Assembly (NCBI RefSeq): GCF_018375725.1
Contig: NZ_JAHACR010000001.1
Location: 8,721 to 72,720, forward strand
Origin: Burkholderia sp.
GTDB lineage: Bacteria; Pseudomonadota; Gammaproteobacteria; Burkholderiales; Burkholderiaceae
Reading direction: 5' to 3'
DNA: 64,000 nt
Positions 548 to 27,246 of this stretch are shown piece by piece. The notes under the pieces are model-generated. The model saw nothing but the letters and a program-made list of their open reading frames with translations. It had not been told where the DNA came from and searched no databases. Position 1 is the first letter of the stretch. Each line of letters starts with the position of its first letter. Both the position numbers and the translations under genes were made by a program.

Positions 548-808
548 CTACGCTACTTCTTCGGCTGTCTGGCGATGCAGCTCGGTTACCACTGCACCAG
601 ATACTCGCCAGCCTTCAAACTCACTCTCCATCAGCCGGTGAACGACGCGATCGAGGACCACGCGTGTGACCTCTCCCTTGTCGTCCATGAACTGCCCGAG
701 AATGCCGGCGATGATCGGGCTGGACTGCCCCGAACGCCGGATTACCACCGAATCCGATCCGACCGAGACGGTAGGCAAGACCGGCTTAAGCCGCGATACG
801 CTGGACAT
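548..808 (-). CDS. small hypothetical protein (86 aa)
   Basis: ATG at 808-806 overlaps the 3' end of the methylase-helicase gene by 23 nt. It is the last gene before the terminator. No motif recognised. Confidence 0.45.
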   Translation of the reverse strand: MSSVSRLKPVLPTVSVGSDSVVIRRSGQSSPIIAGILGQFMDDKGEVTRVVLDRVVHRLMESEFEGWRVSGAVVTELHRQTAEEVA

Positions 809-3800
809 GCGATGTCTCCTTTTCGAGATGCTTGCGAAGGTCGTGGCTGTGAACCCCAATCAGCTCCGACAACTCACGGCAGAAGCGCCGGAAAATGACG
901 TCCAGATGCAGGAACTCCTCGTCGGAGGTCGTCGGCGTGCCCCAATCGAAACCGGCGTTGAAGCTGTCGGCCTTGAACGAGACTACCTGCTGCATGTAGG
1001 TGTCGATCGAGTGTTCCGTAATGACATGATGCGCCTGCACGTCCCACTCGTTTTCCCCGCGCAACGCACGCGCGATCGCCTGGCTTTCCTTGCGGGCAGA
1101 CCAACTCTTGTCTGCCAGCAGGACATCGCTGCACTGGGGAATATTGGTGCCTTCCCCGATGCTGCCGTACGTCACCAGCGCGACCGGAACATCTCCTTGA
1201 CGGTACTTCGATTCGAACTCGGCGTTTCGACGTTTAATCGTCTTGCCGCCGTGGACCACGACCGAATCGATATCCCGTTTGGCGAGGTGCCGGGCAACCA
1301 GCTCCGCATTACCGGGGTACCCGGTGAACATCAATGGGCGCCGGCCGGCTTTAACCAACTCCTCGAGCTTGTCGATACAGAACCGTTGCTTCCGCGTCAG
1401 CTCAGCATAGACCTTGGCCGCCTTCGGATGCTGCGGGAAGTTGTTCGCGATCTCCACGGCCTTGATGCGCGCGAGGATGGCCACGAGGTTGTTCCGCTTG
1501 CCTTCATCCAGTCCTGCCATGTACCAGCTCGAGAAGTCCTCCGACACAACCAGGTAGTGCAGCAAGTGGCTCATGTCGAACTCGATCAGGTGCTGGATAT
1601 GCGTCGGCTCGGGAATCGTGACGCACGAAGCTACGTCCGGTTCCTTGGGTACGCGGCGCTTGACCCACGGAGCGAGCATCTGGCGATACTCCGCCAGATT
1701 GGCGATCCGGGGCACTTCACGCTTGGCACCCTTCAACTCGTCTTCGAATTCTCTGGTTACCCAGACGAAGTCGCAGAACGTGTTCAGAACGCGATCGATT
1801 CCACGTTCGGCCAGCGCCATTGAATGACGCAGACCGGGGTCGAGATAGTAGCGGCGATACCCGTAAGGCTGGGCTGCCGTACCATCCCCTCCGGCGAATG
1901 CCAGAAGCCCGTGACAGTCCCGCGGGTAATTGCCGGCGGGCGTTCCCGTGAGCGGGAATCGTCGCTTGGCCGATACCTGCCAGACTGCGTTCGACTGCTC
2001 CGTGTCGATATTCCCGAGGAAATGAGCCTCATCGGGAATGATCGTGCCGACCCGGCGCCGCAGCTTCTTTGCGTACGTGATGCGAGGATGCGCGCTCGTA
2101 AGTGGCCCCTTGAGACGATCGACCGAGATGATGTTCACCGGGCGCAGCGACTGCAGCTGCTCCGGCGACTCGATCACCTGCCAGACGGCGGGATCGAGCT
2201 TGATCTTGCCGATCTCGATCAACATCTCGTCGACGAGAGCCGACTTCAGCACGATCAGCGCACGCTTGCCGCCAAGGAGCAGGGCGATAGCGAGTGCTGC
2301 ACGCGCCTTGCCGAGCGCCATCGACCACGCCACAACACCGGCACGCTTAATCGCGAGCTCGACCAGGTCATCGATCTGGTAGCCGCGGTTCAGCCACGTG
2401 TCGATGCCGAGTTCCTGTATCTGGCGGCGCCAAGTTGCGGCAAGGCCGGGGAACTGCATAGCGAGACCGGAATAGACCTCTTTCCACTCGCTCTGGGCTT
2501 CCGGCTGCTTCAGTTCGAATCGCGCGAGGATGTCTTCGTACGGCAGGTTGAAGGACTTCCCGTTGTGCTCGAACTGATAGCGGCCGTGCTCGACCTCGGT
2601 GAAGGTGACTTCAGTCCCGGCCTTGATGACCGGAGATCCCCAGCGCGTCGGATCGATCAGATGATCCTTCTTCGCTGTACCTTCCGTGGCCGACCCCTTT
2701 CCGCTTCCCGCCCCAGGCATCAGGACGGTGTGACGGAACGGCGCCTTCTGGCGGGCGGTAACCCGGATCTGGCGCCGCAGGTAGCTCATCAGGCCGGCAT
2801 CGACATGCGGTGTTCCGCCGGCGCGGCCGATATCCGAAATGAAGGCCCAGAAGCTGGCCATCGGATCGGGCTGTGCCAGGTGGATCTGCAGATCGAGTAC
2901 GCCTTGTCCCACGTACGAGACACCCTTTGGATAGCGGTGCTCGGCGTGGGGGCGGTGCGCCCCGATCCTGTCCTGGTAGATCGCGTTCAGAACCATTGCT
3001 TCCGTCAGGCCGCACTGGAACTTGAGGCGGATCCACCGTCCGTCGTGGCACACTCGGACCGTTGAGTCACCCGTGACCGGCCGGGTGATGGCAGGCTGGG
3101 ATACCTCGGCAGACAGGTGAGCGAGCGTCGGCTGGCGCCGCGCTGCGATCGTCAGGTTCGGCGTCGCAACCGGTTCCTCCAGCTTGTACACGCGCTGACG
3201 GTTCGGAGCATCGGTGCGCACTGAGACATCGAACACGGCAACACTGACCCTCACCGTCGCATTTTCCTCCCGGAAAACGTCGAGCGGCATGTCGTACAAC
3301 GCGACGAGACGCTTGAACGGATGCGATTCCTTCCCGCATGCGGTCATGAACACCTCGTCGGCCAGGGTCGTCGGTAGAATGGCGACCACCCACTTCGCTG
3401 CATCCAGCGCCTGATACAGAGCATACGCATCGCTGCGTGTGCTCGTGTTCGGCCCGAACCGCCCGTACGACGTGCATTCGTACGGGGAGAGCAGGGCGCT
3501 CTGCAGGTTGATGGAAAACGGTGGGTTGGCAAGACAGAAGTCGAAATGCCGAGGCCGCACATCCTCCATGCCGGCATGGATGAACTCGTAGGTAAAGCCC
3601 GCGTTCATCGCAGCCTGACTGAGCGAGGCGATACACCCCTCGTCGACGTCCACCCCGTACAGAGAGTGGATATCGGGAGTTGCCCAGTGCAGAAGCCGGC
3701 CACTGCCCACGCTGTTGTCCAGCACGCTGATTTTGTCGATACCTGACGCCCGCACCTGCTCGCGGGCGGCGATACGCTCCATCAGCGGCTGTACGAGACG

Positions 3801-3944
3801 CCAGCAAAAATGCGACAACGACAGCGTCGTGAAGAACTGACTCTGGTGAGCCTGTCGTGCTTCATGCAAGCCCGCGAGGGAGCCCGCCTTGGCCGTTGTC
3901 GAACCCTTCGACTGAATCTCCAGCAGACCGTCAGCCCAGCTCAT
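786..3944 (-). CDS. N6-adenine DNA methyltransferase fused to SNF2-family helicase (1052 aa)
   Basis: N-terminus carries SAM motif VLDNSVGSGRLL and catalytic NPPF (3516-3527). C-terminus carries DEAHFLGN, LTGTPAGN and the helicase-C block GEGTNIPQCSDVLLADKSWSARKESQAIARALR. ATGA start/stop overlap with the upstream gene at 3941-3944. Confidence 0.9.
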   Translation of the reverse strand: MSWADGLLEIQSKGSTTAKAGSLAGLHEARQAHQSQFFTTLSLSHFCWRLVQPLMERIAAREQVRASGIDKISVLDNSVGSGRLLHWATPDIHSLYGVDVDEGCIASLSQAAMNAGFTYEFIHAGMEDVRPRHFDFCLANPPFSINLQSALLSPYECTSYGRFGPNTSTRSDAYALYQALDAAKWVVAILPTTLADEVFMTACGKESHPFKRLVALYDMPLDVFREENATVRVSVAVFDVSVRTDAPNRQRVYKLEEPVATPNLTIAARRQPTLAHLSAEVSQPAITRPVTGDSTVRVCHDGRWIRLKFQCGLTEAMVLNAIYQDRIGAHRPHAEHRYPKGVSYVGQGVLDLQIHLAQPDPMASFWAFISDIGRAGGTPHVDAGLMSYLRRQIRVTARQKAPFRHTVLMPGAGSGKGSATEGTAKKDHLIDPTRWGSPVIKAGTEVTFTEVEHGRYQFEHNGKSFNLPYEDILARFELKQPEAQSEWKEVYSGLAMQFPGLAATWRRQIQELGIDTWLNRGYQIDDLVELAIKRAGVVAWSMALGKARAALAIALLLGGKRALIVLKSALVDEMLIEIGKIKLDPAVWQVIESPEQLQSLRPVNIISVDRLKGPLTSAHPRITYAKKLRRRVGTIIPDEAHFLGNIDTEQSNAVWQVSAKRRFPLTGTPAGNYPRDCHGLLAFAGGDGTAAQPYGYRRYYLDPGLRHSMALAERGIDRVLNTFCDFVWVTREFEDELKGAKREVPRIANLAEYRQMLAPWVKRRVPKEPDVASCVTIPEPTHIQHLIEFDMSHLLHYLVVSEDFSSWYMAGLDEGKRNNLVAILARIKAVEIANNFPQHPKAAKVYAELTRKQRFCIDKLEELVKAGRRPLMFTGYPGNAELVARHLAKRDIDSVVVHGGKTIKRRNAEFESKYRQGDVPVALVTYGSIGEGTNIPQCSDVLLADKSWSARKESQAIARALRGENEWDVQAHHVITEHSIDTYMQQVVSFKADSFNAGFDWGTPTTSDEEFLHLDVIFRRFCRELSELIGVHSHDLRKHLEKETSHVQRIAA

Positions 3945-4765
3945 GCCGCCTCCGCGAGTTCGGTGAAACCATACTCGCCGAGGAACAGTTGCAGCTTCTC
4001 GGAGACCTTCGCGTCGAACACGAACTCGAACCGGGAATGGAAGGTCGTGACCTTGATCTGACCATCTTCCGGGTTTCCGAATGTGTACGACTCACGTGAC
4101 TCGACGTAGCCTTGACCGAGCTGGAATTCGCGTACCAGACGGTCGAGGCTGAATTGCAGCGTCAGCATTTCGGCCCATGATGCAAACGACTTCAGTGCCC
4201 GAACTGTGCGGCCAATGGTTTCCTGGCAGCCGTACTGTAGTCGGTAGCGTTTGTCCCATTTCGAGTTCGTTGCATATACGCCCAAATCGAGCACGATGCA
4301 GCCCTTGCGCCGGGCAATACCCGCTTCCGGTTTGATGCGAAACAGCTTCACGAGCTCTGATCCTGCCTGCCTGAAGGCCGTCTCGACGCCTTGGTTGCCA
4401 CCGAATCGCGACTCCAGGCACGTCCAGAACGTGAGGGCATTGAACTTTCGGAAATCGTTGCCATCGCAACCTGCAGACACGGCGATTTCCTTGTCCTCGA
4501 TCCTGATCGGCGCCGCCGCACTGGGAGAAAACTCCCGCACGGCCACCTCAACCAGATGCCTCATCAGCCCCTGAGCCACGCGCTTGAGATGATCCTCTTG
4601 CTTGTAGTCCGGATAGTCACGCAGGCTGACCATGTAGCTTTCGCAGCCGAAGAGTTCCTGTTCCGCTTCTCTCAAGCGGGCATTTTCTGCGGCATACGCC
4701 GTGATTGCCTTGCACACGTCATCCCAGTATTTCTGGGTTGCGGCAACGAGGTCACGAATTTCCAT
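3941..4765 (-). CDS. hypothetical protein, 274 aa, paralogue of 4879-5703
   Basis: GGAGAAAG RBS precedes ATG 4765. C-terminal block RESYTFGNPEDGQIKVTTFHSRFEFVFD..LQLFLGEYGF aligns with the upstream gene. Translationally coupled to the methylase-helicase. Confidence 0.75.
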   Translation of the reverse strand: MEIRDLVAATQKYWDDVCKAITAYAAENARLREAEQELFGCESYMVSLRDYPDYKQEDHLKRVAQGLMRHLVEVAVREFSPSAAAPIRIEDKEIAVSAGCDGNDFRKFNALTFWTCLESRFGGNQGVETAFRQAGSELVKLFRIKPEAGIARRKGCIVLDLGVYATNSKWDKRYRLQYGCQETIGRTVRALKSFASWAEMLTLQFSLDRLVREFQLGQGYVESRESYTFGNPEDGQIKVTTFHSRFEFVFDAKVSEKLQLFLGEYGFTELAEAA

Positions 4766-4878
4766 GTCTTTCTCCATCAGCAAAGTGGAAAAACACATGG
4801 CCCCCAAGGGCGCATGTGTTCCCCCGGGGTTATGGTGCTAGGCACCTCAGAGTGTCCGGCGGGAAAGCCCGCCCAGAC

Positions 4879-5703
4879 TCAGGCTGCCATCTCTGGCAGC
4901 GTAAAGAAAAACTCACTCAAGAAAAGGGTGAGCGGTTCAGCAACAGCAGGCTCGAACGTCCACTCAAACGACGTGTGGTACGTGACAAGCTTGATGCGAT
5001 CGTCTTGCGCGTTTCCCATCAGGAACGATTCGCGGGAAACGACATCGGCAGGGTATGAAAACCGCGTCGCGATTGGCGCAAGCGCCTCGGCCAACGCCGG
5101 TTTGCCAGCCCAAGCCGCGAAGCTGATCAATGCCGGGATCAGGTCGCGCCGCATGGTTTCGCAGTGAGACGATCCCAGCCGGATGCGAGAGCTGAATTTC
5201 TCGACGTATGCGCTTTGCGTCAGGACAAGTCGCCCGTTCTTCATCGTCATCGGCTCGTCGGCCGATATCCGAAAAGTCCTGGCGATTGCCTTGGCGCGCT
5301 TGCGGTACGCGAGCAAATGGCCAATCCCGTCTCCGTAGTGCGTTTCCAGTTCGGCCCAAAGACGTGTCGGACTGAATGTTTTCGGATGGCAGGGGTGACC
5401 GACTTGGTAGTTCTTCTCCCTTTCCTCGATGTCCACTGGCGTGAAAGCATTGGGAGAGAAGGTCGATACGGCGAACTTGAAAAGGTCATTGATCAGGGAA
5501 CTCGCGCATTCTTCGACAGCACCTTGCGCAAGCTCTGCAGCGACTTCATCCAGCGGACGAAGCGGCTTTTCCGGGGTGGAATCGGTATTGGCACTACGGT
5601 ATTGCCGGCCAAGCTCAATCCGTTCGCGGGCATGTCTGAGCGCGAGTGCCTTGTAGGCGGCCCAGTACTGCTCCATCCGAGCAATGAACTGCGGGGGATT
5701 CAT
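4879..5703 (-). CDS. hypothetical protein, 274 aa, paralogue of 3941-4765
   Basis: GGAGA RBS precedes ATG 5703. C-terminal block RESFLMGNAQDDRIKLVTYHTSFEWTFE..LTLFLSEFFF. Same length as its neighbour. Confidence 0.75.
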   Translation of the reverse strand: MNPPQFIARMEQYWAAYKALALRHARERIELGRQYRSANTDSTPEKPLRPLDEVAAELAQGAVEECASSLINDLFKFAVSTFSPNAFTPVDIEEREKNYQVGHPCHPKTFSPTRLWAELETHYGDGIGHLLAYRKRAKAIARTFRISADEPMTMKNGRLVLTQSAYVEKFSSRIRLGSSHCETMRRDLIPALISFAAWAGKPALAEALAPIATRFSYPADVVSRESFLMGNAQDDRIKLVTYHTSFEWTFEPAVAEPLTLFLSEFFFTLPEMAA

Positions 5704-5779
5704 GGGTGTCTCCAAAGAAATTTGGAGGCATCCTGCGCGCCTGTGGGGGCGGACAGGATGCCCCCAGGGACGGCGATAT

Positions 5780-5794
5780 GGCAGTTGAACTGCC
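5780..5794. promoter_or_regulatory. 15-bp palindrome in divergent promoter region (candidate operator)
   Basis: GGCAGTT-G-AACTGCC, perfect 7-bp arms. Lies between divergent operons. A 9-bp stem GGCATCCTG/CAGGATGCC lies at 5727-5762. Confidence 0.3.
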
Positions 5795-5998
5795 GGGAAA
5801 ATGACAGGCTAGGTACGGTCCAGCTACCGGATCAGAGATCGGAGCCAAGTATAGCAGGGAATTCCTGACGGGAAATTCGGTGATGAAAATTCGCAATATT
5901 TGCCAGTTTCAGCGCTGAAAGATGGCAGGGATGGGCTCTGTTTCCCGATAGTTCGCGAGAGCGGCCGTCAGGATAATCCGTGGGTGCTCAATGTGCCC

Positions 5999-6673
5999 AT
6001 GCGGGCAGCACTCACCTCATTCGATATCGACATGGACTTCGACGACGAAATCACGCTCCCCGATCCGATTCGCTGGAAGGTACTTGGCCGCACGATTCCC
6101 ACGAATCTGCCCCTGACGGCATTCCTGGTGATCGCCGTGCTCGTGGTGTCGTGGATGACGTATTTCGGCGTGCGTGCCAATGTCACACTCCCCACTGGCA
6201 GAGTTCCGTCGGCCGCAGCTTCCGGGCTGAAGGCAACGGCGCAGCCGCAACCATCGTCGGGGATTCCGAAGATCGGTAGCAACTCGTCGCTCCCGCCACA
6301 AGGTAGCGCTCAACTGCGGCGCCAATTCTATTTCGCCTACCTCGCAGCCTGCCAGGCAAATGCCAAGGCGGGTAGGGCGCTGTTCGACAGTGACATAAAC
6401 AGCCAACTGGCTAGCCAGAAGCTGAATACGGTCTTCAACATGGGAATCTCGTATTCGCGCATCGACGACACGGCGTTCAGTCTCACGCTGACCGGCAATA
6501 TTCCGCCAGACGTCCTCTCGTCGGCAGAGTACGCGGAGATTTCGCAGTACGGCCAGCATGTAACGCCAAATTTGTGTGCCGACGTGAACAGTCAGATTCA
6601 TGACCTGGCGGAGCAGCAGGGTGCCGGAACGCCCTCAGAGCGCGCTGCGCCGGCGCCGAACTCACGATCGTAG
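5999..6673 (+). CDS. membrane protein, hypothetical (about 224 aa; start uncertain)
   Basis: Long ORF with one clear TM helix (LPLTAFLVIAVLVVSWMTYFGV). First gene of a tightly spaced plus-strand operon. The ORF opens at TTG 5900; the first ATG is at 5999. Confidence 0.6.
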   Translation: MRAALTSFDIDMDFDDEITLPDPIRWKVLGRTIPTNLPLTAFLVIAVLVVSWMTYFGVRANVTLPTGRVPSAAASGLKATAQPQPSSGIPKIGSNSSLPPQGSAQLRRQFYFAYLAACQANAKAGRALFDSDINSQLASQKLNTVFNMGISYSRIDDTAFSLTLTGNIPPDVLSSAEYAEISQYGQHVTPNLCADVNSQIHDLAEQQGAGTPSERAAPAPNSRS

Positions 6674-6682
6674 GGAGCCAAG

Positions 6683-6883
6683 ATGTCCGTGATGGAAGCG
6701 ATGAAGGAAGAGGACGTGCGTTGCGGCCGCGAATATCAGTGCATGGAAGAGGACTTCGTGGGCATCGTTAAGGTGACCGAGGTCGGTAGCGGCTTGGTCC
6801 ATTACACCGGTGATGCTGACGGCTTCGCGGTGATGAGTGAGTTCATGCGGGCCTATCGTCCGTACCACCGGAGCAAGAACTGA
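6683..6883 (+). CDS. small hypothetical protein (66 aa)
   Basis: Starts 10 nt after the upstream stop. Its TGA (6881-6883) lies 1 nt before the next ATG (6885). No motif recognised. Confidence 0.45.
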   Translation: MSVMEAMKEEDVRCGREYQCMEEDFVGIVKVTEVGSGLVHYTGDADGFAVMSEFMRAYRPYHRSKN

Positions 6884-6884
6884 C

Positions 6885-7742
6885 ATGCTGCTCCGCCGGC
6901 TGCTGAACTGGAGTGCAACGACTTCCGGCGTGATGGAGCCGGAGATCTACGGCGAAGCGCGTGAGCGCTACGAGGACATCTGTCTGGAGCTGGGTATCCG
7001 CAATGCACCCACGCTTCGGCTTGCAAAGAAGGTGACCCTTCTGAGCAAGATCGTCATCGGAGACTGGCGCCGGTCGAAATCGATCCGCGCGGCGGCGCGC
7101 AAGACCATCCCGACCGACCATTTCTTTCTGCACGAGCTCGCCCATGCCCTTTGCCTGAAGTATGTTGGCTACCGGGGATACCACGGCGCTCCGTTTCTTG
7201 TGTTGCTCCAACTGCTCTACGAATTCCACTGGGAGGGCGATCTTCCGGATGTGATCGTGGAAACAGTTCGTGAGGATTGGCCTCGATACGTTTCCAGCGA
7301 GGACAAGGGCAAGACGATTTTCGCAGCATGGGAAGCCGTCAATACGATCAAGGCCGATCTTGAGGCGCGGGAGATATTCCGGCCGAGCGCCGACCTGCTC
7401 ACGCACGAAGTCCGCAAATCGTTCCCCGATCAGGTGTCGGTGCTTGACCGGCGGTTCGAGCCGGATGTGTTGCGCGACATGGTTCGGACGCAACGCGACG
7501 GGCTTTTTTCGCTCGCGCTCTGGTCTAGCGGCGCGGCCGCGCTGACGTTCGGTGCGCTATATCACTTTCTCCCGAGTGCCGCGACCGCATGGACGGCTGT
7601 TGGCTTTGGGCTTCTTCTGCTGGCGGTCCTTGCGACGATCGCAGTTTCGGACATGTCGAGGCGCATCGGACGTCTCTGGCATCGCCTGGTCGATCGGTTC
7701 AGCCGGAAGACGATCGACGACATCGGAACGCCGGATATCTAA
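6885..7742 (+). CDS. SprT-like zinc metalloprotease with C-terminal transmembrane anchor
   Basis: HELAH at 7131-7145 followed by YHGAPF (HExxH..HG pattern of SprT-like proteases). Two C-terminal hydrophobic helices: LFSLALWSSGAAALTFGALYHFL and AWTAVGFGLLLLAVLATIAV. Confidence 0.7.
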   Translation: MLLRRLLNWSATTSGVMEPEIYGEARERYEDICLELGIRNAPTLRLAKKVTLLSKIVIGDWRRSKSIRAAARKTIPTDHFFLHELAHALCLKYVGYRGYHGAPFLVLLQLLYEFHWEGDLPDVIVETVREDWPRYVSSEDKGKTIFAAWEAVNTIKADLEAREIFRPSADLLTHEVRKSFPDQVSVLDRRFEPDVLRDMVRTQRDGLFSLALWSSGAAALTFGALYHFLPSAATAWTAVGFGLLLLAVLATIAVSDMSRRIGRLWHRLVDRFSRKTIDDIGTPDI

Positions 7743-7764
7743 TCAACGCTGCGGGGGGGAGTAA

Positions 7765-8439
7765 ATGTCCGTGCTGAACGGCTACGGCGATAAACGAAAT
7801 CCGACGATCAGCAATCACGGCGTGGATATCGCCGCGCAACGTGCTGACGATCTGGACGGCATGGCGCTTGATCACCTGCGGTCGATCAAGGATCAGGCTC
7901 GTGCACTGGATGTGGCGAGCGCCTCGGGTGGGCAGGCCATTCGTATGGCGCTGGTAGGTGCCGACGTGCTCGCCCTCGATATCGACGACTACTCGGAGGC
8001 GTTCCATACCGCGGCGAGTTCTGCCGGCGTGGAACGGCGATGTGGGTTCGTGCAGCAGGACATCACGGAATATGACGTCGCTGAGAAGCTTGGGCGCTTC
8101 GACGTGATCGTGTGTCAGCGGATGATCCACTACGTCCCGTACGGTGTCGCGATCGACATCGTGCGGACTTTCAAGGAGGCGCTGAAGCCCGGGGGCCGGC
8201 TCTATCTTTCCGCATCCGGTCTGCACAGCGAGCTCGGAACCGACTACCCGGGTGCGCAGCAGCCCATCGACCAGCGGTACGAACTGCTGTCGGACGCGAT
8301 GGTCGAGAAGCACGCGATTATGGGGCTTGTCTGCCTCTACAGCCAGGATGAACTGGTCTCGTTGCTCGAGACGGCGGGTATGCGTGTCGAGCAGTCGTTC
8401 ACGTCGGCGTTCGGAAACGTCAAGGCGGTGGCGCGATGA
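7765..8439 (+). CDS. class I SAM-dependent methyltransferase
   Basis: GGGGGGAG RBS. Motif I LDVASASGGQAIRMAL, acidic loop VLALDID, post-motif PGGRLYLS. Confidence 0.85.
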   Translation: MSVLNGYGDKRNPTISNHGVDIAAQRADDLDGMALDHLRSIKDQARALDVASASGGQAIRMALVGADVLALDIDDYSEAFHTAASSAGVERRCGFVQQDITEYDVAEKLGRFDVIVCQRMIHYVPYGVAIDIVRTFKEALKPGGRLYLSASGLHSELGTDYPGAQQPIDQRYELLSDAMVEKHAIMGLVCLYSQDELVSLLETAGMRVEQSFTSAFGNVKAVAR

Positions 8440-9809
8440 AGCACACGCTCGTCGCTGGATCGGCGCATCTCGATATCCTCGCCCGCCCGCTGCAGAATAC
8501 CGGTTATCGGGATCGAATCGGGTCGGTGCAGCTGGCGGCGGGCGGCACGGCCTGCAACGTCGCATTCAACCTGCGCAAGCTGGGTCGACCAGTCCGCCTG
8601 ATGACTGCATGGGGTACTTCGCCGATCGATCGCATGTTGGCCAGTCACATCGAGTCGATGGGCGTCGATCTGATGGTGGACGAATGCGCTGGGATGGGTG
8701 TGGCAGCGTTTGCCGCCCAACTGACCCCGGAGGGGGATCTGGAATCGGCCGTGTCCGCGATGTGGGTGGACAAGCACACGTTTTCGCCGCTGCGCATCGC
8801 ACAGGCAGTGGCCGGCACCGACCTCATCATCGTGGAAGCGAACCTGAATTCCGAGACGATGTGCGCGATCGCAAAGGCGGGGCGCGAGGCGGGTTGCCCG
8901 GTCTTTGCGATGGCCGTGTCGGAGGACAAGGTCGAGCGCCTGATTCCGGCGCTCCCGCTGCTGACTGCCCTGTTCGCCAACGGCGTGGAGTGCGAAGCCC
9001 TGATGGAAAAGATGGGTGCCGCGGATCCGTCGGATATCGCCGAGTCGAGTGGCGTGCGGCTGATCGTGACACGCGGCGAGCGGGGTGCTGTGGTGTACGG
9101 GCCAGATGGCTCGCGTATGAAGATTCAGCCGCCGATCCTGCAGGATATGAAGACGCTGCTCGGCGTCGGCGACGCATTTTCGGTCGGAATAATCGACGGG
9201 GTTGTCAGGCACGGGAAGTCGTATGCGGAGGCCGCAGAGCACGCCCACGAACTGGTCAAGGAAATCGCCTGCCGAGATACGTGCAATGCGCTCTCCCTGC
9301 ACACGCTGAGCGACATGGTCGACGCGCTTGACGGCACGGCGCGATACGACGCACTTACCGGTCTAATGCAGCGAGCCGCATTCGAGCGGGAGTACAAGCG
9401 ACTGGAAGAAGCAGGTGAGCACGCGCTGCTCCTGATCGATTGCGACCACTTCAAGCAGGTCAATGACAAGCATGGTCACGATGTGGGCGACAGCGTCCTT
9501 AGGGGCGTGGCCGGCATCATCGCCGGGAGCATCCGCAAGGGGGATATACCGTGCCGATGGGGCGGTGACGAGTTCGCTCTCGTGCTGCCGCCTGGCTCGG
9601 ATGCACAAGTCGTGGCAGAGCGGATCCGGATCTCCGTCGCAGAAGCGCGGCTGTATGGCGTAACGCTATCGGTGGGAGTTGCGTTCGCGGAACCCGGCGA
9701 GAAACTCGAATCCGTCTTGAAGCGAGCCGATGCAGCGATGTACCGCGCCAAACGCAAGGGCCGGGATGCGGTCGTGTTCGAGGCCGAGGCGTTGAGCAAC
9801 GAGTCGTGA
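8436..9809 (+). CDS. PfkB-family (ribokinase-like) kinase fused to GGDEF diguanylate-cyclase domain
   Basis: ATGA overlap with the methyltransferase stop. The N-terminal domain has AAGGTACNVAFNL and LGVGDAFSVGII (PfkB signatures). The C-terminal domain has intact GGDEF (9561-9575), I-site RKGD (9534-9545) and DxxHFKxxND. Confidence 0.9.
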   Translation: MKHTLVAGSAHLDILARPLQNTGYRDRIGSVQLAAGGTACNVAFNLRKLGRPVRLMTAWGTSPIDRMLASHIESMGVDLMVDECAGMGVAAFAAQLTPEGDLESAVSAMWVDKHTFSPLRIAQAVAGTDLIIVEANLNSETMCAIAKAGREAGCPVFAMAVSEDKVERLIPALPLLTALFANGVECEALMEKMGAADPSDIAESSGVRLIVTRGERGAVVYGPDGSRMKIQPPILQDMKTLLGVGDAFSVGIIDGVVRHGKSYAEAAEHAHELVKEIACRDTCNALSLHTLSDMVDALDGTARYDALTGLMQRAAFEREYKRLEEAGEHALLLIDCDHFKQVNDKHGHDVGDSVLRGVAGIIAGSIRKGDIPCRWGGDEFALVLPPGSDAQVVAERIRISVAEARLYGVTLSVGVAFAEPGEKLESVLKRADAAMYRAKRKGRDAVVFEAEALSNES

Positions 9810-9854
9810 TTCAAATTTCCCCGGCGAGTTCGGTACCGGAATCAGGGCATTGAA

Positions 9855-10592
9855 ATGGATGTGTCGTCCATCATGGAAGCAACACTACTTGGACTGCTGA
9901 CAGGCGGATGCAGCGTGATGCTTGCGGGTTGGTTGCCGCGCTTTCTCGAAGCACACTACAGCCTCGACGAGGACCGGATCGGCGCAGGCTTGGGCGAGTT
10001 CATGAGCGCGCTCGCCGGCATGAAGCCGGCCAGCAATGAGGTCGCGTGGATCACGGGCAGCGTGGTGTGCTTGCTCTTGGGTGCGGCCGGCTTCTATGCT
10101 GAGTTGGAGTGGGGCACGACGAGCCAGGCTGGCGCGTTCATCCTCTTCGCCGGTGCGCTGGCTTCGGCTGCGCTTATCGACCTCGAGCACGAGATTATTC
10201 CCGACATTCTCATCATCCCGTTGCTCTGGGCCGGCCTGATCTTCAACGCGTCGGGGATGTTCGCGCCATTGTCGTCGGCCGTGTTCGGCGCGGCGGCGGG
10301 CTATTGCTCAATGTGGTTGCTGAACTTCCTCTTCCAGATCGTCGCTGGGCAATCCGGCATGTACGGCGGGGACTTCAAGATGTTCGCGGCAATCGGCGCG
10401 TGGGCAGGACTTAGTGCGCTGGTGCCGACGTTGATCATTGCCCTCGTTGTTTTTGCGCTCACGGCCGGCGTGCGAGTGATGACGAAAAGCACAAACAGGG
10501 AAACGCCCTTCGGACCATATCTCGCAATTGGCGGCGCGGTTTCGCTGGGCCTCGGAGAAAGTACGAGATTCTTCATTCACCTGTTGCGGTAG
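9855..10592 (+). CDS. A24-family (prepilin peptidase / TadV-CpaA-like) membrane aspartic protease
   Basis: Polytopic membrane protein. First catalytic Asp context is LIDLEHEIIPD and the second is GGDFKMFAAIGAW. It has no N-terminal methyltransferase or Cys region. Confidence 0.8.
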   Translation: MDVSSIMEATLLGLLTGGCSVMLAGWLPRFLEAHYSLDEDRIGAGLGEFMSALAGMKPASNEVAWITGSVVCLLLGAAGFYAELEWGTTSQAGAFILFAGALASAALIDLEHEIIPDILIIPLLWAGLIFNASGMFAPLSSAVFGAAAGYCSMWLLNFLFQIVAGQSGMYGGDFKMFAAIGAWAGLSALVPTLIIALVVFALTAGVRVMTKSTNRETPFGPYLAIGGAVSLGLGESTRFFIHLLR

Positions 10593-10769
10593 CACTCTTA
10601 CCTCTTCTAGAATGACACCAGTTTCTCGACTGGAAGCAGTACTTTCCACGTCGAAAATCGCAGCTGGGCGTAACTAGCCACGACGGTCATCCGTCATTTT
10701 CCAACCCGGGTGGGATCCTTGATCCCGCAGCGGGGCATGGATTCTGCCATCGTTTCATCAGGAGAATCC

Positions 10770-12557
10770 ATGCAAGTCAGTACCGAAATTTCGCAGTCTC
10801 AATCCCTTCCGCCGGTGATCGCTGGCGACGTTCAGTCGTCGTCGAGTATCGTGGAGGTCGTGGAACGGGATGTATGTGCGCCCGAGTATGAGAATCTGGT
10901 GGTTCGTATTGGAGACGTACGTGTGGTCTACAACCCGCGGACGTACTTCGAGCCGAAGGCAATGGCTGAGCTGGCCGCCTCGATGCGGGCTCAGGGCCTC
11001 TTGCAACCACTCCTGGTTCGCAAGATGGACGATCACTACGAGCTCATCGCCGGCGAAAGACGTTTGCGCGCGGCGCACGAGGTGTACGGGCCGGACGGCG
11101 TCATTCCTGTCCTCTCCCGGTACATGACCGATGAGCAAGCGGCTCTAGCGGCCGTCACCGAGAACATCCAGCGGGAGGACATGTCCCCCACTGAAGAATC
11201 GGCAGGCGCGCTGCAGGCGATGGCCCTCTACGGGGGCGATCGCGACGAGGTCGCGCGACGCATCGGCTGGTCGCGTTCGAAGCTGGATAGCCGCCTGGCT
11301 CTCCAGAACTGCATTCCTGCGGTCCAGACTGCGTTGAACGAGCGAAAGATCATGCTCGGGCACGCGGAGCTCCTGGCGGCCGTGGTGAAGAAGGTTCAGG
11401 CGGAGATCCTGCCGATGATCATCGAGCGCAACATCTCGGTGGCTGATCTGAAGGCAGAAATCGCGGCGCAAGCCTTGCGTCTCGACACCGCCCGCTTCGA
11501 CAAGACCGAGTGCCTCACCTGTCATCACAACTCGTCCAATCAGCGAACGCTGTTCGCTGAAGCGATCGACGACGCGCGATGCACGCAGAAATCGTGCTTC
11601 GACGCGAAGAACGACGCGCTGATCGAGTCGGTGAAGAAGAGCCTCGAGGGGCAATACCAGCGCATCCAGGTGGTGCGCCCGGGGGACAACCTCACGGTTA
11701 TTGCTCTGAAGCCGGATGGCGATACGGGCGTTGGCGCCGAACAAGCAGAGGCCTGCAAGGGCTGCGCGAACTTCGGCGTGCTCATATCGGCCACGCCGGG
11801 CAAGGTCGGCCTTTCCTATCCGAACTACTGCATGGATGTCGCGTGCAACAAGGAGAAGAACGCTGCCTATCTGGCCACGATCAATCCGCCGGCAGCAAAG
11901 GCGGGTTCGACCGGTGGGTCGGGTAAGAAGGCGGCGGGTCAGCCAGCCAGCAAGGGTTCGTCTGCCGGCAAGTCGGCGTCGAGCGCCAAGCCTGCCGTTT
12001 CCGCCGAGTCCAATCGCGTGAAGGAGTATCGCGAGAAGACGTGGCGTGAAGTGGTTCGCACGGTGATGGTTCGTAGTCCGGCCAAGACCGAACTGCTGAT
12101 CATCACGTTGGCGTCGATGGGGCTGTTGCGCCACATCGACACCACGGCGCTGGCCGAGCAGATCGAGAAGGCTGGCGGGAAGCCGGTTGGCGCCGGTATC
12201 GGTCTGTTTGACAGTTTGACAGTCGTGGCCGGCCTCGAGGAAACGCCGCGAGGCCGTATCCTCGATCTCGTCGCATCGTCGGTCGTGGGCGATATCCAGA
12301 TGCGGGATGTCAAGGATCTCGCGACGTTCCTCGATGTCGATCTTGCCGCTCATTGGCAAGTCTGCTCGGGTCTGCTGGATGTCATGACCAAAGCCGAAAT
12401 CGAGGCCCTGTGTCAGGAAATCGGTCTGAAGGAATTCCTCGGCAAACAGTTCGCCAAGATCATGTCGGGCAAGCGCGACGAGATGATCAAGGGGCTGCTC
12501 AAGGCTGAAGGATTCGAGTTCCGCGGCAGGATTCCTGCCGTCATGCTGCTGAAGTAA
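10770..12557 (+). CDS. ParB-like nuclease-domain protein (PRTRC-type ParB homologue)
   Basis: AGGAGA RBS precedes ATG 10770. ParB N-domain LLQPLLVRKMDDHYELIAGERRLRAA. About 595 aa with a low-complexity Lys/Ala/Gly linker. Confidence 0.9.
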   Translation: MQVSTEISQSQSLPPVIAGDVQSSSSIVEVVERDVCAPEYENLVVRIGDVRVVYNPRTYFEPKAMAELAASMRAQGLLQPLLVRKMDDHYELIAGERRLRAAHEVYGPDGVIPVLSRYMTDEQAALAAVTENIQREDMSPTEESAGALQAMALYGGDRDEVARRIGWSRSKLDSRLALQNCIPAVQTALNERKIMLGHAELLAAVVKKVQAEILPMIIERNISVADLKAEIAAQALRLDTARFDKTECLTCHHNSSNQRTLFAEAIDDARCTQKSCFDAKNDALIESVKKSLEGQYQRIQVVRPGDNLTVIALKPDGDTGVGAEQAEACKGCANFGVLISATPGKVGLSYPNYCMDVACNKEKNAAYLATINPPAAKAGSTGGSGKKAAGQPASKGSSAGKSASSAKPAVSAESNRVKEYREKTWREVVRTVMVRSPAKTELLIITLASMGLLRHIDTTALAEQIEKAGGKPVGAGIGLFDSLTVVAGLEETPRGRILDLVASSVVGDIQMRDVKDLATFLDVDLAAHWQVCSGLLDVMTKAEIEALCQEIGLKEFLGKQFAKIMSGKRDEMIKGLLKAEGFEFRGRIPAVMLLK

Positions 12558-12669
12558 GCAGCCGTCGTCTGTTCGCTGGCCGTCGTTCTGGTGGCCAGTA
12601 TCCATCTTTCCGTTCGCGGGTGCTGTCCCTTGCGGGGCAGGCATTCGCATTTTCATTCCAGGAGTTCTT

Positions 12670-13152
12670 ATGTCCACGCTGTTCAAGCAGTTGCACGCTC
12701 TCGTCTGTCAATCGGACGGCGGTCTCATGATGTCGATCGTTGCAGGCAAGGCTGGGAAGATGACGGTAGCAGTCATGCCGAAGTCGAACCAGAAGGAAGC
12801 GAGTGAAAGTGGGCTTCTGACGCCGCTTGCGCTGACCGGCACGCCGGAAGAGCTTGATGCGGAGTTCGTTCGCTGTCTGGGCGAGTTCACTGGCCAGCGT
12901 CAGTCGCTCGTCGATCAGCTCGCGGCGACCACCGCGGCGCTGGAGGCAGCGAAGGGCAAGGCAGTGGCCAAGGGTAAGCCTGCTGGCAAACCGGCGGCGC
13001 TGCCGGCGCCGACAGCGCAAGCTGGTGTCACGTCTGCGTCCGATCTGATCGACGCGGACGAGGAGTCGGATGAACCGGGTAATGCTGCCACCGAGGCAGC
13101 TCAATCGGGTTCGACCGGCAGTCTGTTCGGTAACGCGGCGCTCGTGGGCTAA
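12670..13152 (+). CDS. PRTRC system protein E-like
   Basis: Position (first gene after parB) and size match the PRTRC gene order. Acidic, Ala-rich C-terminus. AGGAG RBS. Confidence 0.65.
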   Translation: MSTLFKQLHALVCQSDGGLMMSIVAGKAGKMTVAVMPKSNQKEASESGLLTPLALTGTPEELDAEFVRCLGEFTGQRQSLVDQLAATTAALEAAKGKAVAKGKPAGKPAALPAPTAQAGVTSASDLIDADEESDEPGNAATEAAQSGSTGSLFGNAALVG

Positions 13153-13164
13153 GGGGAGACGGAC

Positions 13165-13377
13165 ATGGCATTGGAAGTCTCTCTGATCAAGCGTGTCTTC
13201 ATGTACCACGGCACGCAGTTCGCAGATCCTGGTCCGTCGTTGTCGATCCAGCAGGTTCAGGATGTGCTTTCCATGGCACACCCGGACATTGCAACGGCTG
13301 AGTTCGAGCAGAGCGAGGTCCGTCAGGATGGCACCGTCGTCTACAACGTCCGCCGCAAGGTGGGTCAAAAGGGCTGA
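13165..13377 (+). CDS. ubiquitin-like (beta-grasp) small protein, PRTRC protein C-like
   Basis: 70 aa, ends ...RRKVGQKG-stop with a C-terminal Gly. Sits in a cassette with E1, E2-like and JAB genes. Confidence 0.7.
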   Translation: MALEVSLIKRVFMYHGTQFADPGPSLSIQQVQDVLSMAHPDIATAEFEQSEVRQDGTVVYNVRRKVGQKG

Positions 13378-13379
13378 CC

Positions 13380-13607
13380 ATGAAACCGGTGATGTTTGAC
13401 GCCTGGCTTGCCAGGGCAAACGGCTCATCGGTGGAAGTGGTCAAGGGGGCATCGGGTTCGGAAGATCCCGGTGCCCCTACGCCTATCCCACTTGAGGAGG
13501 TCTACGGATGCGCATGCATTCTGAAATCCATGATCGATCGATCGCAGCAGGATCAGCCGGCCGGCCGATTAAGTCTGATGCCGTTGGATCTGCCCATTCT
13601 TGGATGA
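13380..13607 (+). CDS. small hypothetical protein (75 aa), translationally coupled
   Basis: ATG lies 2 nt after the Ubl stop. Its TGA overlaps the next ATG (ATGA at 13604-13607). Not a named PRTRC component. Confidence 0.4.
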   Translation: MKPVMFDAWLARANGSSVEVVKGASGSEDPGAPTPIPLEEVYGCACILKSMIDRSQQDQPAGRLSLMPLDLPILG

Positions 13608-14650
13608 GGTTGCCGGTGCTCGATCGGGATATCCCGGTCGAGCAAAACAGCCAGCGAAGTCTTTGCTGGCTGGAGGCCGCCAAATCCCTGCATGCGTGCG
13701 GACTGGTCGTCCCATCGGACATCGAAGGTTGGAACTCGCCGGGCAAGGTAGTCGAATCGGCGCTGTCCCGATGGTTTGCGAAACGGACGGACGGGGTAGC
13801 GGCGCTTGAGCTCGATATCTGCTTTGCTTCGGCCACCAACATGGTCGATGAGGGCTCGATGGAAGAGCCTGAAGAGGACGAGCTCAACGATCTTGGCGTA
13901 TGGGTCGAAGTGTCTCGTGACCAGCCGAATTTCCGGAGTCTGCGACGCGGATTTCTGGAGTTGGAGGGGATCGCGGAAGGCCTCGGTATTGCCGCGACCA
14001 CGATTCTTTCGCTGGCTGGGCACATGATCGGCTTTACCTTCGATCATGATTACGTGACCCATTCTGCAGGGTTGCACATCTACGGCTGGGAAGATTGCTG
14101 GCCGGATGGCACCTACGATCCGTCCGAGTTCGGACCGGAAAACGAGGATGGTTCCAGCGAGTACTTCGCCTATACAAGGCCGGCATTCGACCGGGACTGC
14201 CCGCGACGGGAACTGCTTCGGCACCCACCGATTCGCGACATGGAGAAGTTCATTCTTGCCGTCGCGAAGCACAACGCGGAGATGGCGCCAGTACTGGAGG
14301 ACGTGGTTCGACTCGTGAAGGCGAGGCGGCATCGCGATGCGATGTGGCCCACGCTGAGCGGGACTGACTACAACTCCATGATTCCGGCGTTTTCGCTCGC
14401 CTGGGATGCACCGGGCGAGGCAAAAGATGGGAAAGAGGACAACATTTACCGTGTCTGGGACGACTACGCCAACATGCTCCGCAACGGGGGTGAAGGGTGG
14501 GCGTACGGCCTCGGCTCGGAAGTGTTGGCCTGTCGAACCCCGGAGCTTCTACGGGGGACTTTGAAACGTTGGGATAGTCGTCTTCGACTGCTGAGGGCGA
14601 CTGATCGCCTGCTGCATTCGATGACGGATCCCGTTATCTACGGTGGGTGA
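13604..14650 (+). CDS. PRTRC system protein F-like
   Basis: 348 aa from the coupled ATG 13604 (the ORF track opens at 13508). Position in the cassette matches; no catalytic motif recognised. Confidence 0.65.
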   Translation: MRLPVLDRDIPVEQNSQRSLCWLEAAKSLHACGLVVPSDIEGWNSPGKVVESALSRWFAKRTDGVAALELDICFASATNMVDEGSMEEPEEDELNDLGVWVEVSRDQPNFRSLRRGFLELEGIAEGLGIAATTILSLAGHMIGFTFDHDYVTHSAGLHIYGWEDCWPDGTYDPSEFGPENEDGSSEYFAYTRPAFDRDCPRRELLRHPPIRDMEKFILAVAKHNAEMAPVLEDVVRLVKARRHRDAMWPTLSGTDYNSMIPAFSLAWDAPGEAKDGKEDNIYRVWDDYANMLRNGGEGWAYGLGSEVLACRTPELLRGTLKRWDSRLRLLRATDRLLHSMTDPVIYGG

Positions 14651-14651
14651 C

Positions 14652-15392
14652 ATGATCAATACGCAAGTTGTTGGTTCCGGGTCGTCGTTGAAGCTGGAAC
14701 ACGCCATCCTCCTTTACTCACGTTCCGGGCATCCGGGAAGTGCTTCGGGGAATGGCTTTGTCACGATCAATCCTGTCCGGATTGAGAAGGGAAACGCAGT
14801 GATCGGTCCCGGGCAGCCGGCAAGCCGGGCGGCACTGGTCGACGCACTTGATCGGCTTGCAGAACGGGAGCAGACACGAGCGCTGTTTCACCCGCGCCTG
14901 CTTGGCCGTGGGGCGGACTATGCAGTCTGGTACGTCCCGCCCGGAAAGCGCCACCTTGCCTTCAATCACCCCTCCGTGGGGGGAAAGAAGGCTGGGACGT
15001 GCGCGTTACCGGGCCTGGTGTTCTTCCTCGTACGCGACGATTGGTACGTGTTCGCATACCGGGGAAAGCGACGTCCGTCCGCGCGGACGCCGCTCTACCG
15101 CACGCCGTTTTACAACGTGTGGCAGGAGGGGCGGATCTGCGTCGGTAACATCGATCTCCCGAAGCAGGGGACATCGGCGCCGCTGGAGCAATGGGAGGAC
15201 GCGTTTTTCGGAACGTGGTTCACACACCCGAACATTCCGGAGGCGCAGCTCCTGCGCAAGGGGGAGAACTGCGGGAAGCTGTGGAAGGCACTCCTTGCGG
15301 GAAAGCATGAGACGTTTCCGTCGGGGTTTCTGGCACGGACGGGCATGCGACTCGAGGACGCGTTCGGGAAGCTGGTTGGAGGGGGTGTCTGA
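14652..15392 (+). CDS. E2 (UBC)-like protein, PRTRC protein B-like
   Basis: FYNVWQEGRICVGNIDLP resembles the UBC HPN...G.IC.L loop. The candidate catalytic Cys codon is at 15138-15140. TGATG overlap with the next gene. Confidence 0.7.
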   Translation: MINTQVVGSGSSLKLEHAILLYSRSGHPGSASGNGFVTINPVRIEKGNAVIGPGQPASRAALVDALDRLAEREQTRALFHPRLLGRGADYAVWYVPPGKRHLAFNHPSVGGKKAGTCALPGLVFFLVRDDWYVFAYRGKRRPSARTPLYRTPFYNVWQEGRICVGNIDLPKQGTSAPLEQWEDAFFGTWFTHPNIPEAQLLRKGENCGKLWKALLAGKHETFPSGFLARTGMRLEDAFGKLVGGGV

Positions 15393-16030
15393 TGGATCAC
15401 CGTGACATGTTTCTCCAAACCACATTCCCGACGATCCCGGTGCCGCGGTTTGGCCCGCTCGAGGAGCTGGCGTCGAACGGACACCGGTTCCTTGTCGGAA
15501 GCAACGGCGTGGCGCTGGAAGTCCGCCGGCCATGGCTGTACATGCGGCAGATCGCGATGAAGAACGAAAGCGGTCTTGCGCTCCCGTATGGCCGTATGTC
15601 GGAGGTGTTCGAACTCCGCTGTGGCCCGATTCCACGAGAGTTGCTCTTGGAGTTTGCCAGCCAGGCGAAGGCAGGGGGTGAGATCGAAACGGCCGCGTGG
15701 ATCACGTGGCGTGAGAGCACCCGTTCCTTCGTCTTTCGACGACTCAGTGAGCGGACTGCGTCCGCGCACTCCGTAGTTGTGGACCGGCCGGAACTGGACG
15801 CGGACGAGCACCTGGTTGTGGACCTCCATAGCCACGGTCACGCGGACGCGTTTTTCAGTCCAACGGACAACGAAGACGATCAGGGGGAGGTCAAATTCTC
15901 CGTGGTTGTCGGCTCTTGTCACCGTGATCGGCCGGAGGCGTTTGACGTCGTCGCGCGGCTTTGTGCGCTGGGATTGATAGTCCCTGCGAATGAGGCGTTC
16001 TCCTTGAAGGAGGTGCAGCATGCAGCGTGA
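15392..16030 (+). CDS. JAB/JAMM metalloisopeptidase, PRTRC protein A-like
   Basis: Complete JAMM motif H-S-H-x7-S-x2-D (HSHGHADAFFSPTD, 15827-15868). Upstream Glu in GGEIETAAW. Confidence 0.85.
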   Translation: MDHRDMFLQTTFPTIPVPRFGPLEELASNGHRFLVGSNGVALEVRRPWLYMRQIAMKNESGLALPYGRMSEVFELRCGPIPRELLLEFASQAKAGGEIETAAWITWRESTRSFVFRRLSERTASAHSVVVDRPELDADEHLVVDLHSHGHADAFFSPTDNEDDQGEVKFSVVVGSCHRDRPEAFDVVARLCALGLIVPANEAFSLKEVQHAA

Positions 16031-19122: not shown

Positions 19123-19128
19123 AGCCGC

Positions 19129-27104: not shown

Positions 27105-27246
27105 CCGGCTAACCGGCAGGAGGCGGGGATTTTTGTTACGAAATTTGAGTGGGTTATATACGCATAGGCGATTAAAATCCACGAGAATGCGAATCTGCGA
27201 TTCGCCAAACCCCGTCTGCAAGAAGAGGGCCGAGGAGGGCTCGAAC

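Follow-up and report, generated by a model that had tools for sequence, protein, structure and literature searches.

We analysed a locus of six co-directional genes (5999-10592) in a 64,000-nucleotide stretch of Burkholderia sp. DNA (NCBI RefSeq assembly GCF_018375725.1, contig NZ_JAHACR010000001.1, positions 8,721 to 72,720 of the forward strand), hereafter the window, whose own numbering is used throughout. Judging from gene neighbourhoods in relatives, these six genes are a composite of two independent modules. Module B (7765-9809) is a two-gene cassette encoding an S-adenosylmethionine (SAM)-dependent methyltransferase and a PfkB::GGDEF fusion protein, and module A (5999-7742 and 9855-10592) is the four-gene membrane-protein set that surrounds it. 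The tighter unit supported by synteny is thus the methyltransferase-fusion pair. With moderate confidence, we propose that this pair is an element-borne cargo cassette, inserted in a lineage-specific backbone module, that makes cyclic di-GMP (c-di-GMP) under nucleoside-kinase-like input. The preliminary description of this DNA had favoured a single system in which a signal synthase acts through two membrane-protease effectors, a layout that synteny takes apart by separating the synthase from the proteases. Its second option, i.e. a c-di-GMP module on a conjugative element, is now the best-supported explanation, sharpened to the methyltransferase-PfkB::GGDEF cassette.

The six genes, all on the plus strand, are as follows (with the evidence in brackets):

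5999-6673, plus strand: backbone gene 1, single-pass membrane protein of 224 aa (open reading frame, hydropathy, orthologs in place)
6683-6883, plus strand: backbone gene 2, soluble protein of 66 aa (open reading frame, orthologs in place)
6885-7742, plus strand: backbone gene 3, putative membrane-anchored HExxH zinc-peptidase-like protein of 285 aa (motif, alignment)
7765-8439, plus strand: cassette gene 1, class I SAM-dependent methyltransferase of small-molecule type, 224 aa (Pfam, AlphaFold2 model, Foldseek)
8436-9809, plus strand: cassette gene 2, PfkB::GGDEF fusion with RxxD I-site, 457 aa (Pfam, NCBIfam, motifs)
9855-10592, plus strand: backbone gene 4, A24 polytopic membrane aspartic peptidase of 245 aa (Pfam, invariant Asp residues)

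Open reading frames (ORFs) and junction sequences agree with the preliminary description as regards strand and spacing: the genes are separated by gaps of 9, 1, 22 and 45 nt and by one 4-nt overlap (ATGA, 8436-8439), which joins the methyltransferase stop to the fusion start. The positions it gave for the HELAH (7131-7145) and GGDEF (9561-9575) motifs and for a 15-bp palindrome were exact, and its domain calls (class I SAM methyltransferase, PfkB::GGDEF with I-site, A24 peptidase with both Asp residues) were confirmed by Pfam and motifs. The maximal ORF of the first gene begins at 5900, the 224 aa being counted from the ATG at 5999. That of the HExxH gene begins with a GTG at 6837, and gene calls in relatives use the Met equivalent to the ATG at 6885, which gives 285 aa.

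Gene neighbourhoods of the two modules

Neighbourhoods of fusion homologues were compared at decreasing identity, covering ~18 lineages out of at least 123 family clusters (50 % identity), and a local hidden Markov model (HMM) scan was run over all fetched loci for each of the genes. All six genes are found on the same backbone in the relatives at 88 % identity, and likewise around a relative of the HExxH protein at 55 % identity. In Ralstonia insidiosa (loci L090 and L091, and plasmid pB1902, i.e. L093), the SNF2 helicase gene, two paralogous genes, the transmembrane (TM) protein, the small protein, the HExxH protein, the A24 protein and the PRTRC genes follow each other in the same order as in the window, with identities to the window proteins of 45 % (TM protein), 37 % (small protein), 54 % (HExxH protein) and 55-60 % (A24 protein). 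Neither the methyltransferase nor the fusion is present in these Ralstonia elements. The cassette slot is occupied in L090 and L091 by an unrelated 108-aa ORF (L090:10888-11214) without Pfam match, and in pB1902 by a stretch of ~400 nt that carries no annotation. The interval between the HExxH and A24 genes appears to be a hotspot for cargo insertion. A compositional mark of the insertion was also sought, and both GC and GC3 of the cassette genes matched those of their neighbours.

According to the HMM scan, 15 of the ~18 lineages have the methyltransferase gene immediately ahead of the fusion. The pair was retrieved from at least 15 other contexts in which neither protease is present, and those whose contigs are long enough to judge correspond to other mobile-element backbones. 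In Trinickia, the pair is located between ArdC-N/Toprim and a VirD4-type coupling protein; in Herbaspirillum, it adjoins a Tn3 transposase; and in metagenomic elements it stands alongside SNF2 and a DNA ligase. Its other contexts comprise topoisomerase III, DUF1643 and a DNA methylase; RecD2, CsrA and an intein-bearing DNA methylase; a giant Eco57I-methylase/SNF2 protein; and DUF1173 with a Mutator transposase. Two fusion lineages, L086 and L087, have no methyltransferase, one of them being near Rep3/ParAB/KlcB/Mom and the other near TraH, TraG and a type IV coupling protein. The same scan confined the TM, small, HExxH and A24 proteins to the lineage of PRTRC elements, with or without the cassette.

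No third gene was conserved around the pair in the fetched loci, the extra clusters being antisense shadow ORFs. Methyltransferase identity follows fusion identity down the series of relatives (86/88, 63/63, 44/42 and 40/36 %), and a stop/start overlap or a gap of at most 3 nt recurs between the two genes in independent loci with gene calls. On the basis of these neighbourhood comparisons, we regard the locus as a four-gene, lineage-specific backbone module whose variable slot is occupied by a two-gene cassette. The preliminary description had grouped the methyltransferase, the fusion, the HExxH protein and the A24 peptidase as a quartet. The first two do co-occur across genomes, whereas the A24 and HExxH proteins stay with the PRTRC lineage; the synthase and the proteases are thus not syntenic in relatives, which is what that description had itself named as speaking against its proposal.

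Domains, motifs and distribution of the cassette proteins

The fusion combines a PfkB domain (residues 3-273, 7e-22; Pfam PF00294, 78.5 bits for a cut-off of 25.8) with a GGDEF domain (residues 302-444, 2.7e-37; PF00990, 128.5 bits for a cut-off of 23.8). The latter also reaches 128.5 with TIGR00254 (cut-off 37.4) and matches NCBIfam cyclase models at 1e-36 to 1e-40, NCBIfam placing it among ordinary cyclases. Its GGDEF motif (residues 376-380) is preceded, five residues upstream, by an RKGD I-site (residues 367-370, 9534-9545). D335/D337, N343 and D352 are present and vary little or not at all among 34 close and 124 diverse family members; by transfer from PleD-type structures, we take D335/D337 to be metal-binding and N343/D352 to read the guanine. 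Across the 124 diverse members, GG[DE]E was conserved in 123-124, Asn343 in 123, Asp352 in 124 and RxxD in 121. By its motifs, the GGDEF domain bears every hallmark of a GTP-specific, product-inhibited diguanylate cyclase.

The kinase motifs of the PfkB domain are also in place (G36-G37, N182-E185 and G243-x-G245-D246). The GG motif, the Glu of NxxE and the Asp of GxGD are intact in 106 of the 124 diverse members (85 %), and the domain is probably a catalytically active kinase. Its best PDB matches are 2nwh (3.5e-19) and the pseudouridine kinase 7vkp (1.3e-10), and its nearest NCBIfam and PDB entries are pseudouridine kinase and ribokinase, all far below equivalog cut-offs. Compared with nucleoside kinases of the PfkB/ribokinase family (PsuK, 7vkp, and the uncharacterised Agrobacterium kinase 2nwh), the fusion shows the GG, NxxE and GxGD motifs at the expected spacing, but its PfkB domain is only distantly similar to them (E 1e-10 to 1e-19). 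We know of no stand-alone PsuK fused to a signalling output domain. In the methyltransferase-less lineage L087, the fusion (L087:10001-11416, P0033) has lost the kinase GxGD motif (HEHAQDYSF), and the kinase is intact in L086, which is also methyltransferase-less; the single case of L087 hints at a link between the methyltransferase and kinase activity.

Relatives of the same PfkB clade display other architectures. L110:1347-2681 and L116:1065-2390 have no GGDEF domain and carry a C-terminal nucleoside 2-deoxyribosyltransferase-like domain (1.5e-5, below the Pfam cut-off), and L117 combines a winged helix-turn-helix (wHTH) domain with PfkB. This suggests that the clade is a modular family of nucleoside-kinase-like input domains, and the nucleoside 2-deoxyribosyltransferase-like or wHTH domains carried by these relatives point to a nucleoside-type ligand.

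The methyltransferase matches Pfam Methyltransf_23, Methyltransf_25 and Methyltransf_11 above cut-off (5e-12 to 2e-9). Its AlphaFold2 model is confident (predicted local distance difference test, pLDDT, 95.7), and the top Foldseek matches are methyltransferases acting on natural products or small molecules, i.e. SgvM, RdmB, DnrK, CcbJ and NmbA (probability 1.0, TM-score ~0.6). PDB sequence, PDB profile and structure searches all returned generic class I small-molecule methyltransferases with no specific match; they revealed no DNA-methylase signature, and no NCBIfam equivalog was reached. A PADLOC mad2 match spans just the SAM-binding core. One relative, 46-47 % identical, is chromosomal and belongs to a metabolic operon without a fusion nearby.

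With regard to distribution, a profile search assigned at least 123 of the top 150 clusters (50 % identity) to the fusion family, matches being still full-length at the end of these 150. Ten fusion clusters were looked up; each contains 1-5 members, all from metagenome or read-archive assemblies. The metagenome scan for fusion relatives used an alignment cut to the PfkB domain. In PLSDB plasmids, neither a nucleotide search with 5800-10700 nor a protein search with the fusion (at 1e-40) gave a match, hence the cassette is rare in finished plasmids. The IMG/VR viral contigs scanned contained no relative of the PfkB domain of the fusion. No published description of a PfkB-GGDEF fusion was found, as far as can be judged from what are mainly the titles and abstracts of papers naming both words, and a paper on anti-defence genes of leading regions names neither PfkB nor GGDEF.

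Backbone membrane module and its mobile element

By hydropathy, the first protein of module A has one TM segment (residues 40-58). Orthologs are found at the same position in L001 and L092 (71-73 % identity) and in the Ralstonia loci L090 and L091 (45 %), and the 66-aa protein likewise keeps its position, with 73-79 % identity in Paraburkholderia and 37 % in Ralstonia. None of the first three proteins has a match in Pfam, NCBIfam, PADLOC or PHROG.

The third of them contains the motif HELAH-x12-HGxxF, in which H83, E84, H87 and H100 (the last within YHGxPF) are invariant in 11 of 11 members of a family of just 10 clusters. Hydropathy predicts at least one strong C-terminal TM segment, and the AlphaFold model ends in two long helices, in line with the preliminary description of a membrane protein with an HExxH motif. 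Its further label, 'SprT-like', is an unconfirmed resemblance at the level of the motif. As in the minimal zincins SprT, Spartan and WLM, HExxH is followed ~12 residues on by an invariant His-Gly-x-x-Phe, which presumably resembles their third-ligand motif; unlike them, the protein has no profile or structural match, is predicted to be all-helical (with modest confidence) and bears C-terminal membrane helices. No match was obtained in Pfam, NCBIfam, PHROG or PDB (sequence and profile), and the best Foldseek hit had an E-value of 1.3, on a model of moderate confidence that allows no firm exclusion. The HExxH model, all-helical and built from 11 sequences, reaches a pLDDT of 66.7 and found nothing in Foldseek at E<1.

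The A24 protein is a clear member of Peptidase_A24 (PF01478, 2e-18, 67.2 bits for a cut-off of 26.5) with several TM segments by hydropathy. Its two Asp residues, in LIDL (10173-10184) and GGDFK (10365-10379), i.e. D109 and D173, are invariant in five orthologs. The protein lacks an N-terminal methyltransferase domain, and over its C-terminal half it shares 41-43 % identity with A24/prepilin peptidases from Pseudomonas and E. coli plasmids. With plasmid prepilin peptidases (PilU of IncI thin-pilus loci, A24 peptidases of Pseudomonas megaplasmids) it shares the A24 domain, both Asp residues, a polytopic topology and a mobile-element location; it differs in that the similarity concerns the C-terminal half only, in its linkage to the HExxH protein and PRTRC, and in that no pilin, pilus-assembly or Tad genes occur in the window or the flanks examined. 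A six-frame scan of the 64-kb window for the prepilin leader G-[FMILV]-[TS]-L-x-E gave no match, the flanks of the relatives examined contained no pilus genes, and the Ralstonia plasmid pB1902, which bears module A, has an MPF_T secretion system. As there is no prepilin-like leader in the window and a module-bearing plasmid has MPF_T, the term 'orphan' given to this peptidase by the preliminary description, with no pilin nearby, is a fair one.

In cassette-less Ralstonia elements, the A24 orthologs adjoin the PRTRC ParB gene. The A24 and HExxH proteins were considered as general PRTRC partners and rejected, since the place upstream of ParB is taken in pMOL28 and pPHS1_P by an N6 DNA methylase gene and hypothetical genes. 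By its distribution, module A is a backbone set specific to this family of elements, and its most likely role is membrane proteolysis in the service of the element.

The surroundings of the six genes comprise three further features:

5716-5998, no strand assigned: divergent intergenic region separating the minus-strand paralog gene from the plus-strand genes, with two palindromes and a conserved block
10710-16775, plus strand: PRTRC cassette (NCBIfam PRTRC models, Prok_Ub)
786-5715, minus strand: SNF2-family helicase (786-3944) and two paralogous 280-aa genes (3941-4807 and 4879-5715), divergently transcribed

The stretch belongs to the accessory/establishment part of a conjugative plasmid or integrative element of the Burkholderiaceae, in agreement with the mobile-element setting proposed beforehand. 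The locus is flanked by the SNF2-helicase block on one side and by the PRTRC cassette on the other. The latter, lying immediately 3' of the six genes, is a ubiquitin-like conjugation system of the mobile element. Its gene order is ParB-like, E, ubiquitin-like C (13165-13377), F, E2-like B, JAB/DUF2016 A and ThiF/E1-like; ParB matches NCBIfam TIGR03734 at 8e-183, F falls below its model cut-off (36 vs 58 bits) and the other PRTRC genes are present in row. SNF2 and the two paralogs, which are ~30 % identical to each other and have no family match, are kept alongside the backbone module in every Paraburkholderia or Ralstonia relative examined. The element is most closely related to contigs of Paraburkholderia fungorum and P. 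humisilvae and to plasmids of Ralstonia insidiosa.

A six-gene operon driven from a divergent promoter had been proposed. Close spacing speaks for it, but the same-strand run goes on past 10592 into ParB and the remaining PRTRC genes after ~117 nt, and no sigma-70-like promoter was matched in 5600-10800. The boundary of the 'six-gene operon' is therefore arbitrary, as the same-strand genes carry on into ParB/PRTRC. Terminator-like sites in 5600-10800 occur at chance frequency, and with no sigma-70 match either, promoter and operon status are inferred from spacing only. The divergent intergenic region contains the 15-bp (7+1+7) palindrome GGCAGTTGAACTGCC at 5780-5794 and a perfect 14-bp palindrome, TTTCAGCGCTGAAA, at 5907-5920, both partly kept in the close Paraburkholderia relatives. 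A non-coding block at 5808-5860 (GGCTAGGTACGGTCCAGCTACCGGATCA...GTATA.CAG) is shared by the Paraburkholderia and Ralstonia elements, whose coding genes there are just 37-60 % identical; this block may be a regulatory site. Rfam detected no RNA element in the window at gathering threshold, nor in 5600-10800 at E<=1.

Further along the window, a SET-domain protein (6e-21) adjoins a DUF1173 protein (18592-20448). DUF1173 is also found directly upstream of the methyltransferase-fusion pair in the metagenomic locus L120, and near PRTRC in pMOL28 and pPHS1_P. Shortly after a tyrosine recombinase gene (27133-28257) begins an island (28507-35039) that encodes VgrG, then a Tle3-type phospholipase effector of type VI secretion (1e-96) and a 499-aa protein of no assigned family. 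The region 36509-47653 is a mosaic of TelA (toxic anion resistance), a Tn3-family transposase, a second tyrosine recombinase and an IS66 transposase, and it probably lies outside the element carrying the six genes.

Possible roles of the cassette and alternative explanations

Under the explanation that we favour, the fusion would make c-di-GMP in the host. Its PfkB domain would be the input domain and mediate dimerisation, its state of ligand binding (nucleoside or sugar, plus ATP) setting the output of the cyclase, and the methyltransferase may act on the same small molecule or on the product of the kinase. The element would in this way adjust host c-di-GMP, i.e. biofilm, motility and a mating-friendly state, to a metabolite cue, as other element-borne cyclases do. 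DgcK and DgcL of the SXT/R391 integrative conjugative elements are such mobile-element-encoded diguanylate cyclases. The cassette resembles cyclases of this type in carrying a canonical GGDEF cyclase as cargo, with an expected rise in host c-di-GMP and effects on biofilm and motility. It differs from them by an input domain that, judged by its motifs, is a catalytically intact PfkB kinase, and by a fixed pairing with a SAM methyltransferase. The same comparison holds for Dgc137, the cyclase of a Vibrio alginolyticus genomic island, which changes the biofilm and motility of recipients (PMC10672970). The cassette is thus a variant of the already known element-borne diguanylate cyclase, and no description of the pair itself is known to us.

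Several points weigh against this explanation. The partnership of the methyltransferase and the fusion is strong, not obligate, as L086 and L087 lack the methyltransferase and one chromosomal methyltransferase lacks the fusion, and the neighbourhood sample covers ~18 of at least 123 family clusters. The Paraburkholderia lineage keeps all six genes together down to ~55 % identity, and given this retention a lineage-specific functional link between cassette and proteases is conceivable. Both the c-di-GMP product and the role of the PfkB domain are read from motifs. Finally, an intact kinase is unusual for a mere sensor, and kinase and methyltransferase could make something rather than sense it.

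This last point leads to the alternative that survives best, to which we nevertheless give only a minor chance. The pair would be a hitherto unrecognised, widespread two-gene system of mobile elements: an active nucleoside or sugar kinase, together with its dedicated methyltransferase, would produce or convert a small molecule, and this molecule would either gate the synthesis of c-di-GMP or be combined with it. Plasmids and integrative conjugative elements would use the system while becoming established in a new host, e.g. to detect or oppose a nucleoside-based signal of that host. In such a small biosynthetic or modification pathway, the kinase would phosphorylate a nucleoside or sugar, the methyltransferase would methylate the substrate or the phosphate, and GGDEF would use the product or be gated by it, the outcome being a non-canonical signal or a (anti-)defence activity of elements entering a new host. 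The conservation of the kinase catalytic residues in 85 % of the 124 diverse members agrees with it, as do the coupling of the methyltransferase to the fusion in 15 of the ~18 lineages with co-varying identities, and neighbours typical of establishment or anti-restriction (ArdC, SNF2, DNA methylases, ParB-like proteins, Topo III). The degenerate GxGD motif of the methyltransferase-less L087 fits as well, but the equally methyltransferase-less L086 retains an intact kinase. Tandems of kinase and methyltransferase acting on one substrate exist, e.g. WbdD, which was among the weak profile matches. However, both the active site and the I-site of the GGDEF domain conform in full to those expected for the conversion of GTP to c-di-GMP, PfkB kinases yield monophosphates, which GGDEF domains do not use, and the pair has no match in defence databases (PADLOC).

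Another explanation, somewhat less probable still, makes module A the functional part and the cassette irrelevant cargo. The A24 peptidase would mature a type IV pilin-like or other N-terminally processed protein for transfer or surface exclusion, with the HExxH protein as a second protease in processing or regulation. A24 peptidases of conjugative plasmids do process thin-pilus prepilins, and it is to such enzymes that the C-terminal half is 41-43 % identical; moreover, the four genes are kept as a set across the Paraburkholderia and Ralstonia elements. In the first protein, a Gly just ahead of the TM segment (G30) is kept by all four true orthologs that were aligned, but the residues that follow it are unlike a canonical prepilin site. 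The prepilin-leader motif is absent from the 64-kb window, the MPF_T system of the module-bearing Ralstonia plasmid uses no type IV pilins, and the more distant PRTRC elements pMOL28 and pPHS1_P do not have the module.

The idea that the six genes form one cyclic-nucleotide system of immune or abortive type, in which fusion and methyltransferase make a signal activating two membrane-protease effectors, is largely refuted by synteny, and we consider it very improbable. Its attraction lay in six closely spaced, co-directional genes found all together in four Paraburkholderia-type relatives (down to 55 % identity), and in a location on a mobile element, such elements frequently carrying defence genes. 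Yet the proteases persist without the synthase in the Ralstonia elements, and at least 15 other contexts have the synthase cassette but neither protease. The palm-domain cyclase beside membrane proteins on a mobile element is superficially like CBASS, Pycsar, type III CRISPR ancillaries and mCpol/Panoptes, but the synthase and the membrane proteins are not co-inherited, neither protease shows a nucleotide-binding sensor domain (Pfam, NCBIfam), and the enzyme belongs neither to the CD-NTases nor to the mCpol-like enzymes, being a canonical c-di-GMP cyclase of housekeeping type with an I-site. PADLOC, by which the preliminary description had suggested looking for a defence system, returned no system-level match on the window; the matches were weak hits to Cas10-palm models (4e-4 to 4e-3) and a generic methyltransferase-domain match, with no system proteins, and the weak Cas10-palm similarity is the distant homology expected for any GGDEF domain. 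Equally improbable is an accidental accretion of cargo that left the methyltransferase beside one more sensor-cyclase: mosaicism is usual in the accessory regions of mobile elements, the methyltransferase is missing from two fusion lineages and one methyltransferase relative is chromosomal without a fusion, but direct adjacency in the same order in 15 of the ~18 lineages on unrelated backbones, recurrent (near-)overlapping stop/start codons and parallel sequence divergence all argue against it.

The interest of the locus is as follows. For the discovery of defence systems, the layout of a synthase with two membrane proteases would be a product of cargo insertion, which removes a false lead; the four-gene membrane-protease module, next to the ubiquitin-like PRTRC genes, is a minor puzzle of its own. 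Furthermore, the fusions constitute a sizeable uncharacterised family in which a PfkB kinase, enzymatically intact by its motifs, takes the place of the usual sensor and a methyltransferase is the near-constant, translationally coupled partner. Finally, mobile-element cyclases reprogramme host behaviour, and what controls such cyclases is mostly obscure; the pair, which is on a mobile element wherever the surrounding genes could be judged, offers a handle on how mobile elements may tie a metabolite cue to the c-di-GMP of their host.

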